42,897 bases of DNA from a phage: assembly GCA_029955215.1 (NCBI GenBank), contig GCA_029955215.1_4351.1. One strand, written 5' to 3'. The position numbers were made by a program, and so were the translations under genes. The notes under the pieces are model-generated. The model ran no database searches. It was not told the origin of the DNA and saw only the letters and a program-made list of their open reading frames with translations. Positions 1 to 42,897 of this stretch are shown piece by piece (the first letter of the stretch is position 1; every line of letters starts with the position of its first letter).

Positions 1-99
1 CATATCTCTTAAGTAACTGATTTTCTTAATGTGCCGTAGATTCGCAACCGTAAAAATGTAACGATTATTGGGCAGGCTTAGGGCCTGCCCTTTAGTTAC
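1..99. repeat. Left copy of exact 99-bp direct repeat (identical to 42799-42897); terminal redundancy or circular-assembly overlap
   Basis: Bases 1-99 match 42799-42897 exactly; contains hairpin gggcaggc-ttagg-gcctgccc followed by ttt at about 72-95. Confidence 0.9.
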
Positions 100-162: not shown

Positions 163-191
163 TTGCACACCCCAACATAATAGGATACTAT
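163..191 (+). promoter_or_regulatory. sigma70-like promoter, class I (TTGCAC-N17-TACTAT) with conserved AATAG-N4-CTATT core
   Basis: TTGCAC 163-168, 17-nt spacer accccaacataatagga, TACTAT 186-191; upstream of first + strand ORF. Confidence 0.6.
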
Positions 192-216
192 TCACTTATC
201 GAAACGAGACAGAGAG

Positions 217-1761: not shown

Positions 1762-1790
1762 TTGCACGCTAAGATAGAATAGGCTACTAT
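1762..1790 (+). promoter_or_regulatory. sigma70-like promoter, class I (TTGCAC-N17-TACTAT)
   Basis: TTGCAC 1762-1767, TACTAT 1785-1790, same spacer family as 163-191. Confidence 0.6.
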
Positions 1791-1820
1791 TCATTTACAC
1801 GAACGAGAGGAGAGACAGAG

Positions 1821-4890: not shown

Positions 4891-4911
4891 TCTATTTTCT
4901 GTAATGACTAG

Positions 4912-4940
4912 TTGACTATTACCTACGACCCTATTATATT
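4912..4940 (+). promoter_or_regulatory. sigma70-like promoter (TTGACT-N17-TATATT)
   Basis: TTGACT 4912-4917, 17-nt spacer, TATATT 4935-4940; about 35 nt upstream of ATG 4974. Confidence 0.6.
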
Positions 4941-6679: not shown

Positions 6680-7225
6680 ATGAAGCTGAAACTTAAGCAG
6701 CCATCGCCAGAGGTGGTGCAAGCTGCACATGAAGAAGCTGTTAGCGCAAACCGTCGCCGTAAACGACCGCGCGGTAAACAGAGCCTTTATCAATCATCCC
6801 GTAATTCCGCTGCGTTGTGGGACCCGGACTATTGCGACGAATTGATTCGTTTCTTCGACCGCACGTCATGGGAACTTGTGCCTACGTCTAAAGGTGACGA
6901 ACGCCCGCTGATTCAGGATAAACCCCCGTCACTTGCCCGCTTCGCCTTACACATCGGCGTCACTATCCCGATTATTAAGCTATGGCTGCGTGAGATTCCC
7001 GCATTTGCAGAAGCCTATGAAACCGCACAGGCGCTGGAAGAGGCATACTTCACCGAGACAGGGGCCGCGGGTATCTCTGCTACATTTGCTGCCGCGAAGC
7101 TGGGCCTCAGTAAAGAGAAACCGGTTGAATCCACCGAAGAAACAGCACCGACTGAGATTATTTTCAGTGTTGCGGAGCCTGTAGGTAAAATCGTAACAAC
7201 GAATATGGGCGAGGTAGAGGAATGA
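6680..7225 (+). CDS. terS: terminase small subunit (putative)
   Basis: Immediately upstream of and overlapping terL; basic N-terminus, HTH-like segment; ATG 6680 after aagggga. Confidence 0.6.
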   Translation: MKLKLKQPSPEVVQAAHEEAVSANRRRKRPRGKQSLYQSSRNSAALWDPDYCDELIRFFDRTSWELVPTSKGDERPLIQDKPPSLARFALHIGVTIPIIKLWLREIPAFAEAYETAQALEEAYFTETGAAGISATFAAAKLGLSKEKPVESTEETAPTEIIFSVAEPVGKIVTTNMGEVEE

Positions 7226-11726: not shown

Positions 11727-11752
11727 AAATACCTCCTGTTTAAGTTAACTGA

Positions 11753-11781
11753 ATAGTACCCTATTATATTGGGGTGCGCAA
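11753..11781 (-). promoter_or_regulatory. sigma70-like promoter, class I (TTGCGC-N17-TACTAT) on minus strand
   Basis: Minus-strand reading ttgcgc-accccaatataataggg-tactat; near-identical to 21139-21167 and 163-191. Confidence 0.6.
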
Positions 11782-11847
11782 ACTATTTGTTTATGTATTC
11801 CAGTTATTCCACCAAATTGTAAATGTTGGAATAAACTATTCGAATAG

Positions 11848-11876
11848 TTGACTTTTCACTAAAAATATGCTAAGCT
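11848..11876 (+). promoter_or_regulatory. sigma70-like promoter (TTGACT-N17-TAAGCT), preceded by perfect 14-bp palindrome ACTATTCGAATAGT
   Basis: TTGACT 11848-11853, TAAGCT 11871-11876; palindrome 11835-11848; inverted repeat TTATTCCA/TGGAATAA 11804-11834. Confidence 0.45.
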
Positions 11877-21108: not shown

Positions 21109-21138
21109 TTTAAACCCCTTCATTGTTGGTGTAAGTGA

Positions 21139-21167
21139 ATAGTACCCTATTATATTGGGGTGTGCAA
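21139..21167 (-). promoter_or_regulatory. sigma70-like promoter, class I (TTGCAC-N17-TACTAT) driving minus-strand cassette
   Basis: Minus-strand reading ttgcac-accccaatataataggg-tactat. Confidence 0.6.
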
Positions 21168-32801: not shown

Positions 32802-33086
32802 TTAACTATAATAGTTCACTATTAGGTCGTCAACCTCTTCTTTTGTTCCTACTACAAAAACATTTGCGCCACGTTTACGAAGCCGTTTGTGCTCCCGCAA
32901 CTGATGGTCCTCCGGTTCCGTGTTTTCATCCTTCTTCACCTCTACAAACCATATCACTCCTCCTGGAAGGGCGACTAACAGGTCAGGCGCTCCGTTTCTA
33001 CCCTCGTACGACAGCTTACGAACGAGGCCGCCAATAGCCTCGAATCGGTCTTTTGCGTATTTCTGTATTTTGCCTTCCGGGGTCAT
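32802..33086 (-). CDS. VRR-NUC domain nuclease
   Basis: PDLLVALPGGVIWFVEVK (D...E-x-K) ; start at ATG 33086 (ORF track TTG 33101). Confidence 0.65.
   Translation of the reverse strand: MTPEGKIQKYAKDRFEAIGGLVRKLSYEGRNGAPDLLVALPGGVIWFVEVKKDENTEPEDHQLREHKRLRKRGANVFVVGTKEEVDDLIVNYYS
32805..32833 (-). promoter_or_regulatory. sigma70-like promoter, class II (TTGACG-N17-TATAGT) on minus strand
   Basis: Minus-strand reading ttgacg-acctaatagtgaactat-tatagt; contains AATAG-N4-CTATT core. Confidence 0.6.
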
Positions 33087-36388: not shown

Positions 36389-36417
36389 ACTATAATAGCA
36401 AACTATTCAGGTGTCAA
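36389..36417 (-). promoter_or_regulatory. sigma70-like promoter, class II (TTGACA-N17-TATAGT) on minus strand
   Basis: Minus-strand reading ttgaca-cctgaatagtttgctat-tatagt; near-consensus. Confidence 0.7.
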
Positions 36418-39056: not shown

Positions 39057-39284
39057 TTACTCGCCGTCGCCTTCGGTAAGGCTATCGTCTATTAATTCAA
39101 ATTTACCGTTTGAGTGCTGAATAGCTTCTTGCCCGCAATGGTCGCAAACCACCAGTTTATCGAATCCGTCAAACTCATCCCCGACTACACAAGAAAGTAC
39201 AAATTTATGTTTTGTACACGCTTCTTGCGGTTCACCAAAAATTACCCGGAAACCTTTAGCTATAGCGCCAGTTACTATGTTCAT
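39057..39284 (-). CDS. hypothetical protein with CxxC pair (75 aa)
   Basis: First gene downstream of class II promoter 39313-39342. Confidence 0.45.
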   Translation of the reverse strand: MNIVTGAIAKGFRVIFGEPQEACTKHKFVLSCVVGDEFDGFDKLVVCDHCGQEAIQHSNGKFELIDDSLTEGDGE

Positions 39285-39312
39285 ATCCGCCCCTCTCGTT
39301 TGGTATGGGCTA

Positions 39313-39342
39313 ACTATAATAGCGAACTATTCACGTTGTCAA
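39313..39342 (-). promoter_or_regulatory. sigma70-like promoter, class II (TTGACA-N18-TATAGT) on minus strand
   Basis: Minus-strand reading ttgaca-acgtgaatagttcgctat-tatagt. Confidence 0.6.
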
Positions 39343-39406
39343 TGGGCTTTTCTAAAATAATTAATATGGTACTATTCACATATCAACTGACTAAGGAGTA
39401 ACTGAC

Positions 39407-39622
39407 ATGCAACCATCTGAACTAGGCATTCGTGTAGAACAACGCCGCAAAGAACTCGGCATCTCCCAGCGCCGTCTGGCTGTCCTGACAGGAGTTTCCC
39501 AGGGCGCAATTAACCAGCTTGCGCTCGGTGTAACTCAGGACGTCCGCCCAGCAACGCTGTTTAAACTGGCGGAAGTGCTGGAAGTAGACGCCAAGTGGCT
39601 GGCGTTCGGTGAAGGGGCTTAA
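39407..39622 (+). CDS. XRE-family HTH transcriptional regulator (Cro/CI-type)
   Basis: RRKELGISQRRLAVLTGVSQGAINQLALG classic HTH; AAGGAG RBS; only + strand gene inside the minus-strand module. Confidence 0.75.
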   Translation: MQPSELGIRVEQRRKELGISQRRLAVLTGVSQGAINQLALGVTQDVRPATLFKLAEVLEVDAKWLAFGEGA

Positions 39623-39638
39623 CGCCCCTTTCTTTTTA
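39612..39638 (+). terminator. rho-independent terminator after HTH gene
   Basis: aaggggc-ttaac-gcccctt followed by tctttttatt. Confidence 0.7.
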
Positions 39639-39833
39639 TTGCACCTTTATCGGGTATCTTTTTCGAAACTTACCTAACCCGCAGTACACGCTGTAAGCCT
39701 CTGTGTAACTGTACACAACATGATATCCCCGGCCATAAGGAACTACGTTAAGAACTTCTACTATTTCGCCTCTGTGGTTGGTGTATTTATTACCTTTCAG
39801 TTCGTCGCTTACTTCTTTAAATTTACCGCTCAT
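39636..39833 (-). CDS. hypothetical protein (65 aa)
   Basis: ORF coupled to primase/helicase stop. Confidence 0.4.
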   Translation of the reverse strand: MSGKFKEVSDELKGNKYTNHRGEIVEVLNVVPYGRGYHVVYSYTEAYSVYCGLGKFRKRYPIKVQ

Positions 39834-42070
39834 TCCAAATCCTCCTCCGTCACCACCAGCATTTCATTCGGTTCGTATATCGTCTTCGGTCTTAATCTGT
39901 CACCCATCTTTTCCGGTATCCGGTAGGTACCAGGTATAACTTCACCGTTAACGTCACTTCCAAGCATCAACTCACCGTCTTTCAGCATCTTCTCAAGATG
40001 GTGGTTGGTGATGGCGTGGTCGCCTGAGTTCGCTACTATCTGCCGTTGGGTAAAACCTCGTCCGGTGTCGTCGGACTGTTGCAGGTCTTCCAGCGCGGCG
40101 AGTATTGATTCCTTACGCCCTTCATCCTTCCCGCGTTTTACAGCATTCTTTACGTTTTCTTTACCTTCCTTTGTCAGCCCTTCTTCCCGCTCTTTCTCCT
40201 CGTCAGTTTTGAATGGCTCGAAGCCCCACGGCATCAACACAAGCGCCTTGTGTGGTTCCGGCAGGTCGAGGTTTACGATTGTGCCGTATTCCTCCGTGCT
40301 GCCCAGGAACTCCACCGCGCGGTACTCTTTCGGCGGTGGCGCTTCACGGAACTGTACCGACTCCAGCACCATACCAACCGTCTTCTGTTGAGGCCCGTGC
40401 TTAAATTTAGAGTGGTATACGTTTATCTGACGGTCGGTTGCGCGTTCAATTGTCAGCTCCACGTCGACACCCGCATACAGCGCCCCACTGCCACGGGCTT
40501 TCTTTCCACCCTTCGGGGTATGGTGAACAACGCCCACCGCAGCTTTGGTTGCGTCGCGTACTTCTTTCAGGATGGCAATGACTTTACCCATGCCGATTGC
40601 CGTCGATGAACTGTTCTCGTCGAACTTATCAATCGTCAGGGCCAGCGTCTGGTTGAGGGTATCGAACGCGACCATCCCAATTGGCTCGTCACCCGCGGTT
40701 TCGCGCATCAACTTAATCAGGCTTTTCAGTTTTCCGACTTCGCCCATGTCGATAACATGTACATAACCTTTACCTTCCTCGCCATATTTAGCCGCGAGTG
40801 CGTCGATGCGTGTGCGTGTAGCAGCACCACCCTCACCGTCGATATAGAAATGGTGGCAACGCTGGGTATCTGCCCCTGCAAACCGGTATCCGGCGGCGCT
40901 AAGGTACATCATCCCCAGCGTATAGAACGATTTGTACGTGCCAGATTCCCCGACGATATCCCAGATACAATCCGACGGCATGTACCCTTCAACGACGAAA
41001 TCAGCCTTTACCGGTTCCGGTAGCTCGTCCTCCTCTGAGTCCTCGTCGTCTTCCAGGTCGTCGAGGCTGCATGAAACGGACTCACGTACACCCCATCCAA
41101 TAGCCTCTGCGACTTCACTGAACGGCAGCCCGGTCGCATCGCACGCATACTTCCACACCTCTTTCGGCGACATGCCCTCGGTTGCCGTAATGTCGGTGTC
41201 GTGAATCATGGTTACGTTAGGCGCTTCGTAACCCTCGCGCGGGAAGCACAGCAGGAAGTCATCCGGGCGCGGGGTAGGGTCACTGTAGTTTTCGGCATGT
41301 TCCGGCGTAGCTGGCATCTTAAGGCCGCGCGGGGTCATGATGCCGCCGTACTCGAAGGCCAGTTCCTCAAACGCATCAGTAAACGCAGTGCGCAGTTCTT
41401 CCGGTATCTGGTAGTCGGATGCGCTGCTAACGTCAACGGCGGGGATACCTTCCAGCAACTCGTCCGGGTCAATCAGGTCGTTGCGGCGCGACCAGATAAC
41501 CTGAGAACCAACCGGCGGCAGGTACATCGGCTGCGACAGAGTGAACCCGCTGCGGTCAGCGCCCATGCCTTTGAAGAAGTGCTCAAGCAGTCCGTGGCGA
41601 ACGCGGATGATGTCACCACCCTCAACCGGACGGCCCAACGGCATGACGACACGAAAGCGCGGTGACTCATCGGTATGCGATGCTGTAGTGTAGAGACACA
41701 TCGCCTGGCGGCTGCGCTTAACCAGACGCACCGCTTCCTGATACTCTTCCGGCGTTGCACTGTCGAAGTCAAGATACGCCAGCGACGATTTGCTTACAGA
41801 CGCGTCACAGCGATAGAAAAAGCCTTTACGTGCCTGCTTAAAGTCACCGGTTTCCGGGTCTTTTACGGTACTGTGTGTAGAGTCGCACGCGGCGGTGATG
41901 TAGCCGGGAGCAGTCTTAGGGTTAATCCCATCGCGGACGGCATCGAGCGGCTGGATTAACTCTTTCAGGTCGTCCAGTGTTGCCGCGTGTGTGGTTCTGA
42001 CGTTTATATCCTTTTTCTCTGCCCTCGCGTTGCGACGTGACCACGAGTAGGATAAAATTACATCGGACAT
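39830..42070 (-). CDS. DNA primase/helicase (primase-like N-terminal region plus RecA-like P-loop NTPase)
   Basis: P-loop VGESGTYKS and Walker B-like MVAFDTL; 746 aa; largest gene of replication module. Confidence 0.65.
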   Translation of the reverse strand: MSDVILSYSWSRRNARAEKKDINVRTTHAATLDDLKELIQPLDAVRDGINPKTAPGYITAACDSTHSTVKDPETGDFKQARKGFFYRCDASVSKSSLAYLDFDSATPEEYQEAVRLVKRSRQAMCLYTTASHTDESPRFRVVMPLGRPVEGGDIIRVRHGLLEHFFKGMGADRSGFTLSQPMYLPPVGSQVIWSRRNDLIDPDELLEGIPAVDVSSASDYQIPEELRTAFTDAFEELAFEYGGIMTPRGLKMPATPEHAENYSDPTPRPDDFLLCFPREGYEAPNVTMIHDTDITATEGMSPKEVWKYACDATGLPFSEVAEAIGWGVRESVSCSLDDLEDDEDSEEDELPEPVKADFVVEGYMPSDCIWDIVGESGTYKSFYTLGMMYLSAAGYRFAGADTQRCHHFYIDGEGGAATRTRIDALAAKYGEEGKGYVHVIDMGEVGKLKSLIKLMRETAGDEPIGMVAFDTLNQTLALTIDKFDENSSSTAIGMGKVIAILKEVRDATKAAVGVVHHTPKGGKKARGSGALYAGVDVELTIERATDRQINVYHSKFKHGPQQKTVGMVLESVQFREAPPPKEYRAVEFLGSTEEYGTIVNLDLPEPHKALVLMPWGFEPFKTDEEKEREEGLTKEGKENVKNAVKRGKDEGRKESILAALEDLQQSDDTGRGFTQRQIVANSGDHAITNHHLEKMLKDGELMLGSDVNGEVIPGTYRIPEKMGDRLRPKTIYEPNEMLVVTEEDLE

Positions 42071-42128
42071 GTTGTATTTCCTTTAGCAAGTAATTTGGCC
42101 TCGGCGTTCACCGCGTCGGGGCTTTCTT

Positions 42129-42362
42129 TTATTCCAGGTCTTCTAAAGTAGCGGTCATTCCGCGAACTTCAGCAACAGCGCTATATTTCCCGCCAACATT
42201 TTTCACGACACCGGATTTAACCAGCACGCGCAACGACGCTTCAATAATGGCGGAACTATAGTACTTAAAATAACTTCGGCGCAAGTCAAGAACGCTACAC
42301 GACCCTTTTTTACGTGTAAGCGAAACGACCGCCGTAAATACGCGGGACTGGAACTCGGTCAT
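42129..42362 (-). CDS. hypothetical protein (77 aa)
   Basis: ORF coupled to upstream HTH gene. Confidence 0.4.
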   Translation of the reverse strand: MTEFQSRVFTAVVSLTRKKGSCSVLDLRRSYFKYYSSAIIEASLRVLVKSGVVKNVGGKYSAVAEVRGMTATLEDLE

Positions 42363-42529
42363 TTCACGTTCTCCTTAATCCAGGCTTCCACTTTCTCTGG
42401 GTCGAACGTACCAGGCTGACGGCGGCCCATAATGCGGATACAACAATCTGGGAACTTCCCGCTCTTTAACCAGTTATTCAGCGTGCGACGAGTAACCCCG
42501 ATACACTCAGCTACCTCATTCTGTGTCAT
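42359..42529 (-). CDS. small HTH DNA-binding protein (AlpA/excisionase-like family)
   Basis: MTQNEVAECIGVTRRTLNNWLKSGKFP; start set at ATG 42529 with gaggg RBS (ORF track TTG 42562). Confidence 0.55.
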   Translation of the reverse strand: MTQNEVAECIGVTRRTLNNWLKSGKFPDCCIRIMGRRQPGTFDPEKVEAWIKENVK

Positions 42530-42561
42530 TCTCAAACCCTCATTATCAGTTAACAAAATCA

Positions 42562-42590
42562 AGTATACATTGCGAATAATGGGAAATCAA
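42562..42590 (-). promoter_or_regulatory. sigma70-like promoter (TTGATT-N17-TATACT) for minus-strand early operon
   Basis: Minus-strand reading ttgatt-tcccattattcgcaatg-tatact. Confidence 0.55.
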
Positions 42591-42798
42591 ACATAATCGC
42601 ACCTATTGACATTATGAAAATCTTCGTTTAAGGTGCTTCTATATCTTAGTTACTTTGATTCCTGTTCACCTTGTAAGAATGTTTAACCCGTGCGTTAAGC
42701 AAAGGGTTAAGCACAGGATTACTGAACACTCGAATTATCGTAACTTTCCTTTTCTTAGTATCTCAGTTGCCCTGGGCAAGCTCTATTCTCATCGGCAT

Positions 42799-42897
42799 CA
42801 TATCTCTTAAGTAACTGATTTTCTTAATGTGCCGTAGATTCGCAACCGTAAAAATGTAACGATTATTGGGCAGGCTTAGGGCCTGCCCTTTAGTTAC
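42799..42897. repeat. Right copy of exact 99-bp direct repeat
   Basis: Identical to 1-99; the window ends exactly at the end of the repeat. Confidence 0.9.

Follow-up and report, generated by a model that had tools for sequence, protein, structure and literature searches.

The window, i.e. the whole analysed stretch of 42,897 nucleotides (nt) of GenBank assembly GCA_029955215.1 (contig GCA_029955215.1_4351.1), carries a gene for a 71-amino-acid (aa) helix-turn-helix (HTH) regulator of the XRE/Cro type, and ten copies of a palindromic 14-bp site, AATAG-N4-CTATT, of which two lie in the control region of this gene. The first 99 bases of the window (1–99) are identical to the last 99 (42799–42897), and the window thus holds a phage genome in full (about 42.8 kb), its ends repeated through assembly overlap or as terminal redundancy. 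Around the regulator gene, 4 kb of sequence was ca. 90% identical to the Escherichia coli phages CR01, fEg-Eco06 and BEU33 and to further members of the genus Kagunavirus (subfamily Guernseyvirinae); several hundred Salmonella Jerseyviruses matched more weakly. The window is the genome of a virulent E. coli siphophage of this genus. As had been reported in a preliminary description of the locus made from the sequence alone, no CI-like repressor or integrase was found, neither being annotated in related genomes; the same was true of partition genes and other integration genes. An Rfam scan of the whole window returned no RNA family.

The regulator gene is an open reading frame (ORF) preceded by a Shine-Dalgarno sequence, AAGGAG, which was kept in 32 unique related intergenic sequences (AAGGAA in one), and it is followed by an intrinsic terminator (Table 1). 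The terminator is one-directional, as no U-tract follows the same hairpin on the minus strand. Folding of this region on the + strand was unremarkable (z-score −1.04), and the terminator call rests on the hairpin, the T-run and conservation, not on folding energy; the Jerseyvirus orthologue is followed by a hairpin with a different stem sequence, which is annotated as a terminator. The gene is monocistronic, with both neighbours on the other strand and no co-directional partner gene. Its surroundings consist of genes for the primase, a 65-aa protein and a 75-aa protein, and no toxin or restriction-modification genes are adjacent. The divergent gene (39057–39284, minus strand) encodes the 75-aa protein, which is rich in cysteine, has no Pfam match and belongs to a PHROG of unknown function, so that by Pfam and PHROG annotation there is no divergent CI repressor to share the operators. 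The preliminary description had recognised the regulator as the only + strand gene in a 12-kb minus-strand module, with a terminator of its own. Both statements were upheld, the former also by the ca. 90% identical phage fEg-Eco06, in which one + strand gene, the orthologue ("transcriptional regulator cro"), stands among about 20 minus-strand genes.

The assignment of the protein to the XRE family was likewise confirmed, with a match to the Pfam profile HTH_3 (PF01381) over residues 11–65 (47.2 bits against a cut-off of 23, E = 2.3e-12). The top match of a PDB sequence search was the Cro protein of phage 434 (E = 2e-6, residues 6–68), followed by the N-terminal domain of the 434 repressor and by P22 C2. 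The single-sequence AlphaFold (AF2) model, which is a prediction and not a solved structure, had five helices and a pLDDT of 81.5, and its top Foldseek match was 434 Cro again (2CRO, TM 0.73/0.79, 38% identity). The protein is single-domain, as the HTH domain covers nearly all of the 71 aa; it has no C-terminal oligomerisation, dimerisation, peptidase or S24 self-cleavage domain, nor the extension of distant relatives, which are much longer at 239 aa. The nearest homologues outside Guernseyvirinae, in the lambdoid Klebsiella phages GZ7 (43.8% identity) and ST16-OXA48phi5.2 (39.3%), hold the Cro position in CI-Cro-CII modules. Since 434 Cro leads both the sequence and the fold matches, and since these homologues occupy the Cro position, the 71-aa protein is, by sequence and modelled fold, a genuine Cro homologue of the 434 Cro-like type.

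Two copies of a short element, ACTATTCA, had been pointed out upstream of the gene. Both were present, the first at 39326–39333 (one position further than the original 39325–39332) and the second at 39371–39378; both sit in an 18-nt direct repeat with a spacing of 45 bp. The window contained eight copies of ACTATTCA against 1.22 expected, and none of 100 shuffles reached eight. The contexts of all eight copies identified the element as the right half of AATAG-N4-CTATT, and it does not stand as the free-standing motif it was first taken for; in the regulator's own promoter it takes in most of the likely −10 element (TACTAT). In an unbiased count of all 5-N(0–8)-5 inverted repeats in the window, AATAG-N4-CTATT was the only strongly over-represented 5-N-5 palindrome, with seven exact copies against 0.03 expected, when every other palindrome had at most two. 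With one mismatch allowed, ten sites (seven exact and three additional) were found against 1.13 expected, and this number was not reached in any of 100 shuffles. All ten were located in promoter-like sequence 5′ of ORFs with matching orientation. The promoters concerned include the three best sigma-70 matches of the genome, i.e. the divergent minus-strand promoter 39342 to 39313 and its paralogues at 36417 and 32833, which were tied for the best match in the window.

Table 1. The regulator gene, its expression signals, and the promoters and palindromic sites located in the window.
Feature	Position	Strand	Basis or detail
XRE/Cro-type HTH protein, 71 aa	39407..39622 (including stop codon)	+	ATG-start ORF; Pfam; PDB match; fold model
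Shine-Dalgarno AAGGAG of the HTH gene	39393..39398	+	Read from sequence
Likely HTH-gene promoter: extended −10 TGgTACTAT; weak −35 CTTTTC at 39347–39352	39367..39375	+	Read from sequence, predicted
Intrinsic terminator of the HTH gene	39611..39641	+	Stem 39611–39631, stop codon in loop, then T-run CTTTTTATT
O_R: AATATGGTACTATT, palindrome with one mismatch, covering the −10 element of the promoter of the HTH gene	39363..39376	.	Palindrome scan
O_L: AATAGCGAACTATT, exact palindrome in the spacer of the divergent minus-strand promoter	39318..39331	.	Palindrome scan
Class II promoter TTGACA (39342–39337)-18-TATAGT (39318–39313), driving gene 39284 to 39057 and downstream replication/recombination genes	39313..39342	−	Promoter scan, 11/12
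Exact palindrome within the spacer of class II promoter 36417 to 36389 (−), 5′ of genes for DUF2815 protein and DNA polymerase	36394..36407	.	
Exact palindrome within the spacer of class II promoter 32833 to 32805 (−), 5′ of small genes and helicase	32810..32823	.	
Exact palindrome covering the −10 element of class I promoter TTGCAC-17-TACTAT (+), 5′ of small early rightward genes	179..192	.	
Exact palindrome covering the −10 element of class I promoter (+), small genes downstream, then holins and endolysin	1778..1791	.	
Exact palindrome over the −10 of minus-strand class I promoter (gene 11726 to 11502)	11752..11765	.	
Exact palindrome over the −10 of minus-strand class I promoter (superinfection-immunity-like gene, exonuclease, HNH)	21138..21151	.	
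One-mismatch palindrome ACTAGTTGACTATT centred on −35 TTGACT of promoter 4912–4940 (+), 5′ of packaging/head genes	4907..4920	.	Class III
One-mismatch palindrome AATAGTTGACTTTT centred on −35 TTGACT of + strand promoter, 5′ of scaffold/capsid genes	11843..11856	.	Class III

At the regulator locus itself, the dyad-symmetric, operator-like sequences O_L and O_R overlap the two divergent promoters. An overlapping divergent promoter region had been described here; the strong minus-strand promoter was recovered, but the promoters do not overlap, as their cores are back-to-back with the −35 regions ca. 5 bp apart. For the regulator gene, the likely promoter is the extended −10 element TGgTACTAT, in which the T and G were invariant in relatives while the third base varied (G/A/C), and in Jerseyvirus the same TACTAT is found 17 bp from TTGCAC. 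An alternative, TTCACG-17-TAAAAT (39330–39358, 9/12), was rejected in favour of it, because TACTAT was kept everywhere when TAAAAT was lost in the lineage L037 and absent in Jerseyvirus.

The predicted promoters fell into three classes according to the register of the dyad. In class I (TTGCAC-17-TACTAT), the dyad covers the −10 element with its centre at ca. −12.5, and the regulator's own promoter has the same register. In class II (TTGACA-17/18-TATAGT), i.e. the three replication-module promoters, it lies in the spacer with its centre at ca. −18.5, whereas in class III it is a one-mismatch copy centred on the −35 element. The presence of the same dyad in three registers argues for a factor-binding site and not a polymerase-recognition element, and the dyads are very probably functional cis-elements. 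Genes downstream of the class I promoters comprise small early ORFs, a superinfection-immunity-like protein and an exonuclease, with holins and endolysin further along the unit starting near 1778. The replication promoters had been named as the possible targets of the regulator, and three of them do contain palindromes; however, the sites are not limited to these but are found in some eight to ten promoters genome-wide, and the candidate regulon extends to early rightward operons and to two operons embedded in the structural region.

One early promoter was free of the site. The leftward promoter of the primase operon, TTGATT-17-TATACT (42590 to 42562), contained no AATAG-N4-CTATT copy. Because of the identical ends, 42562–42897 and 1–217 make up one divergent early control region. 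A dyad at this primase-operon promoter, CATTA-TTCG-CAATG, was discarded as unrelated to AATAG-N4-CTATT and not conserved in Jerseyvirus.

Conservation was assessed with an IMG/VR scan based on an alignment of four orthologues, which returned 63 loci, and 33 Kagunavirus-type contigs from these were used. Every orthologous site was kept across these contigs, with O_L and O_R present in 33/33. In seven orthologous groups the non-consensus fraction was only 0.2–0.4% in the half-sites, when it was 8% in the central 4 bp and 10–13% in the 12-nt flanks; the ascertainment bias in these figures is small, since the site was present in almost all contigs covering the position in question. The half-sites of O_L were invariant in 33/33 relatives around a varying centre (CGAA, CTAA, TGAA, CAAA, CGAG), and in the 122-bp control region (32 unique copies) the variable positions clustered in the O_L centre and in the 4–5 nt between O_L and the −35 element. 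The ACTAGTTGACTATT site was found with its exact sequence in 21/33 contigs, several others ending before the position, and an orthologous copy of the site 36394..36407 was kept in relatives and in Serratia phage Tsm2. The regulator gene with its control region was present in all 117 Kagunavirus-level records, where the primase gene was found in the same number at lower identity. The regulator was intact also in ca. 355 Salmonella phage records, and its protein identity within the genus was 95–100%. The divergent 75-aa gene was replaced by unrelated sequence in most related contigs, with the control region kept, which marks a mosaic boundary exactly at the regulatory module.

Outside the genus, the element was found at orthologous promoters in Jerseyvirus and in Serratia phage Tsm2. 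In the Jerseyvirus PVP-SE2 (NC_073186), divergent promoters and a terminator are annotated around the orthologue ORF_17, and the promoter sequences carry AATAG-N4-CTATT or AATAG-AGTA-CGATT. The relaxed pattern AWTAS-N4-STAWT was over-represented in four complete genomes, i.e. the window (7 observed against 0.79 expected), PVP-SE2 (6 against 0.70), TS6 (5 against 0.51) and Tsm2 (3 against 0.29), and no shuffle reached the observed count in any of them. Where the protein was divergent, the half-sites were shifted too, to ATTA(G/C) in the TS6 group and to AATAC in L052, and the recognition helix of these lineages also differed.

The geometry of the site is also the one expected from the protein family. 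The CI-Cro intergenic regions of the homologues in phages GZ7 and ST16-OXA48phi5.2 contained the 14-bp dyads ACAA-N6-TTGT and ACAG-N6-CTGT, and Burkholderia phage vB_PL1 had ATAAC-N4-GTTAT. These sequences suggest that the family of the regulator goes with 14-bp 5-N4-5 operators starting with A, exactly as in the window. The first Gln of the recognition helix was invariant in the four aligned Guernseyvirinae orthologues and occurs also in 434 Cro; in the published 434 complexes, this residue contacts the initial adenine of the operator. Two copies bracketing the regulator's own promoter are, moreover, the usual signature of autoregulation. With the family and site geometry taken together, the 71-aa regulator probably binds the dyads.

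The preferred reading, to which we assign a probability of roughly 0.55, is that the regulator may act as a Cro-type repressor of itself and of a genome-wide set of early and replication promoters. Host RNA polymerase would transcribe the gene from the extended −10 promoter, and the regulator would bind the palindromes as a dimer and occlude the polymerase. Binding to O_R over its own −10 element would result in negative autoregulation, and O_L in the spacer would serve as the repression site of the divergent replication-module promoter. Perfect sites are found also in two further replication promoters and in four early-type promoters, and one-mismatch sites over the −35 elements of two promoters 5′ of structural genes; the perfect sites of classes I and II would be filled first as the regulator accumulates, and the one-mismatch sites of the own promoter and class III only at higher concentration. 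We infer as the outcome negative feedback and a graded, genome-wide turn-down or timing of about ten promoters, akin to the lytic action of Cro at PL and PR. The geometry of a genetic switch, as first proposed, is thus retained in so far as operator-like palindromes lie in both divergent promoters; as no second regulator shares the operators, the arrangement points to negative feedback and multi-promoter turn-down and not to a bistable switch.

Several observations weigh against this reading. Binding and repression by the regulator are predicted from sequence, as are the promoter classes. The half-sites resemble −10 hexamers (TACTAT, TATAAT), and their conservation may in part reflect promoter function. 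A simple early shut-off is incomplete, because the primase-operon promoter is without a site and two structural-gene promoters have imperfect copies. With only about 50% identity, the Jerseyvirus protein also differs in its recognition helix (SQSLITH in place of SQGAINQ), yet AATAG...CTATT is mostly kept there, and the covariation of protein and site is suggestive but not strong, as it comes from only two or three lineage events. In addition, temporal RNA-seq of a Kagunavirus placed one HTH gene, which could be either of two, among four early genes (PMC12645636).

The resemblance to −10 hexamers leads to the alternative that the palindromes are real cis-elements to which the regulator does not bind, being either promoter architecture made of paired −10-like hexamers or the site of some other host or phage factor, when the XRE protein would act elsewhere, e.g. 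on host genes. This is unlikely, since one and the same palindrome takes three different registers with respect to the −35 and −10 elements, and in the class I/II spacers the left half-site lies outside the sequence-specific contacts of RNA polymerase, which makes none at this position. The two copies flanking the regulator's own promoter and the 14-bp operators of the same geometry in homologous Cro proteins point in the same direction. Of the possible other binders, the second small HTH protein of the window (42359–42562, minus strand; excisionase/Cox/HTH_17-like by PHROGs), which heads the primase operon and besides the regulator is the one DNA-binding protein recognised in the early region, was present in Kagunavirus, L037 and Jerseyvirus; homologues were missing from the complete TS6 and Tsm2 genomes, where the sites remain enriched, and it was therefore rejected as the palindrome binder. 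The mostly unchanged site beside an altered recognition helix in Jerseyvirus speaks for an unbound palindrome, as does TgrL, an early XRE protein of the virulent phage phiCbK, which represses host genes (PMC10688885).

The spread of the sites over early, replication and structural-gene promoters would also suit an immunity-type repressor, with occupied operators permitting a carrier or pseudolysogenic state and superinfection immunity without CI or integrase, and lytic timing as a secondary effect. The Jerseyvirus SGP-C (93.85% similarity to SETP3), whose orthologue ORF49 was named Cro/repressor and whose upstream HTH_17 protein was speculatively called "cI", reportedly formed turbid plaques and phage-releasing "lysogens" with superinfection immunity, possibly as an episome (PMC8790156). 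Nevertheless, this evidence is phenotypic and weak, Kaguna- and Jerseyviruses are called strictly lytic in many papers (PMC6627115, PMC9787291, PMC13216507), the regulator is without a dimerisation or cleavage domain, related genomes have no annotated partition or integration genes, and the primase-operon promoter has no site, which together make the immunity explanation rather improbable. Equally doubtful is a master repressor with operators in almost every strong promoter, which at high concentration would silence the whole genome into a CI-less dormant or carrier state with superinfection immunity, and in which graded operator quality and the three registers would set the lytic temporal order. 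A decaying remnant of a lysogeny module without present function might be suspected from the homology to Cro genes of temperate phages and the missing CI partner; it is disfavoured as highly improbable by a gene that is intact in all Kagunavirus-level and Salmonella phage records above, by the high protein identity within the genus in a region more conserved than the primase gene, and by the retention of promoter, Shine-Dalgarno sequence and terminator. HipB, HigA and restriction-modification controller (C) proteins were among the sequence and fold matches, but 434 Cro outscored all of them, and a monocistronic gene with its own promoter and terminator, no co-directional partner and no adjacent toxin or restriction-modification genes makes an XRE-type antitoxin or a C-protein scarcely credible.

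Compared with known systems, the regulator is closest to 434 Cro (2CRO, 3CRO, 1ZUG). Both proteins are 71 aa long and single-domain without a C-terminal domain, with the first Gln of the recognition helix in common, and the candidate sites are the same 14-bp 5-N4-5 dyads starting with A. Unlike in 434, the half-site is AATAG and not ACAAG, a CI partner, tripartite OR/OL and PRM are missing, the gene is monocistronic and has a terminator of its own, and about ten sites are dispersed in the genome in place of six in two clusters. The Cro genes of GZ7 and ST16-OXA48phi5.2 are similarly divergent from a leftward operon with 14-bp palindromic operators between the divergent promoters, but these phages have CI, CII and lysogeny, when in the window the divergent gene encodes the 75-aa protein and the phage is regarded as virulent. 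The likeness to lambda Cro is functional only, as a small early repressor proposed to damp early transcription (PL, PR) and its own; lambda Cro has a winged, beta-rich fold and two operator clusters. Single repressors with many scattered sites in many transcription units are found in phage P1 (C1) and mycobacteriophage L5 (gp71, "stoperators"). These are prophage-maintenance repressors with asymmetric sites, and in L5, elongation inside transcription units is blocked at the stoperators; the sites of the window, by contrast, are dyad-symmetric and lie inside promoters. The phiCbK protein TgrL is alike as an XRE factor of a virulent siphophage that is expressed very early; its documented targets are host genes, unlike the candidate sites here in the phage's own promoters (PMC10688885). 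Serratia phage eta ("unstable lysogens") was dropped as a guide, since only its structural module is common with the Guernseyvirinae group and it is uninformative on the regulator.

The gene itself is ordinary and already annotated, routinely as "transcriptional repressor (DicA)", "cro" or "XRE regulator" in Kagunavirus records, and the SGP-C orthologue was called Cro by its authors (PMC8790156). Regulation was not addressed in the temporal Kagunavirus RNA-seq study (PMC12645636), and in full-text literature searches no paper came up in which operators or a regulon are defined for the regulator gene or its orthologues. The operator set and its genome-wide distribution are thus apparently undescribed, although a Cro-type repressor with dyad operators in promoters is conceptually not new. 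Kaguna- and Jerseyviruses belong to the phages that are most frequently isolated and put forward for therapy and food biocontrol, and their genome papers variously pass over or dismiss the regulator, label it "repressor DicA", or take it as a sign of a temperate lifestyle. The defined operator AATAG-N4-CTATT and the candidate regulon of about ten promoters make its role directly testable, provide a working model of temporal control for a subfamily with an essentially unstudied transcription programme, and bear on the question of an immune carrier state in these "strictly lytic" phages.

The orientation of the regulator relative to its neighbours varied between lineages. It was divergent from the DNA-polymerase operon in every lineage examined, but its convergence with the primase gene was limited to Kagunavirus, L037 and Jerseyvirus; in TS6, Tsm2 and five more lineages (seven in all) it is the first gene of the primase operon. 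Transcription against the replication operon, as noted in the preliminary description, is therefore true of the window, where the regulator is convergent with the primase gene and not the first gene of the replication operon, but by sequence comparison it is a derived state, reached via inversion or replacement of the primase block, which on the same evidence was later provided with a promoter of its own and with the second HTH gene. What is conserved as a unit is the regulator with its bidirectional control region. The interval from the 65-aa gene (stop at 39636) to the regulator gene contained no intrinsic minus-strand terminator, and transcripts of the primase operon are therefore likely to continue antisense into the latter gene (39407–39640, minus strand), i.e. 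convergent transcription with possible interference.

Additional features were observed in and around the primase block. Within the minus-strand operon, between a 77-aa gene and the primase start, a terminator-like hairpin in + orientation (42097–42123, 11 pairs and a T-run) has no U-tract after it on the minus strand, and could halt antisense transcription that escapes the regulator's terminator. In the related contig L005 (10427–11647 against 39830–42070 of the window), the regulator was 100% identical to that of the window when the helicase-primase was only ca. 30% identical, so that the primase module has been exchanged among otherwise close Kagunaviruses. In Serratia phage Tsm2 (L004), the regulator and the primase gene point the same way, and the regulator stop codon is still followed by a hairpin with TTTG behind it (7033–7075), which could be an attenuator between the two genes.

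Just upstream of the −35 element TTGACT of the capsid-operon promoter, there are a GGAATA-N3-TATTC dyad (11828–11841) and the perfect 16-bp palindrome AACTATTCGAATAGTT (11834–11849; centre ca. −41.5). The latter was rejected as an operator of the regulator because its half-sites are everted, implying a different binding geometry. Jerseyvirus PVP-SE2 has GGAATA-CTT-TATTCC at the place equivalent to 11828–11853, and these dyads, with a geometry unlike that of the main operator, may mark the site of another regulator or an activator position. Furthermore, a conserved leader containing AACGAGAGG on the transcribed strand follows several class I/II promoters (39288–39312, 195–215 and 1795–1815); it includes the ribosome-binding site yet is longer than that requires, and at the divergent promoter it was kept between Kagunavirus and Jerseyvirus.

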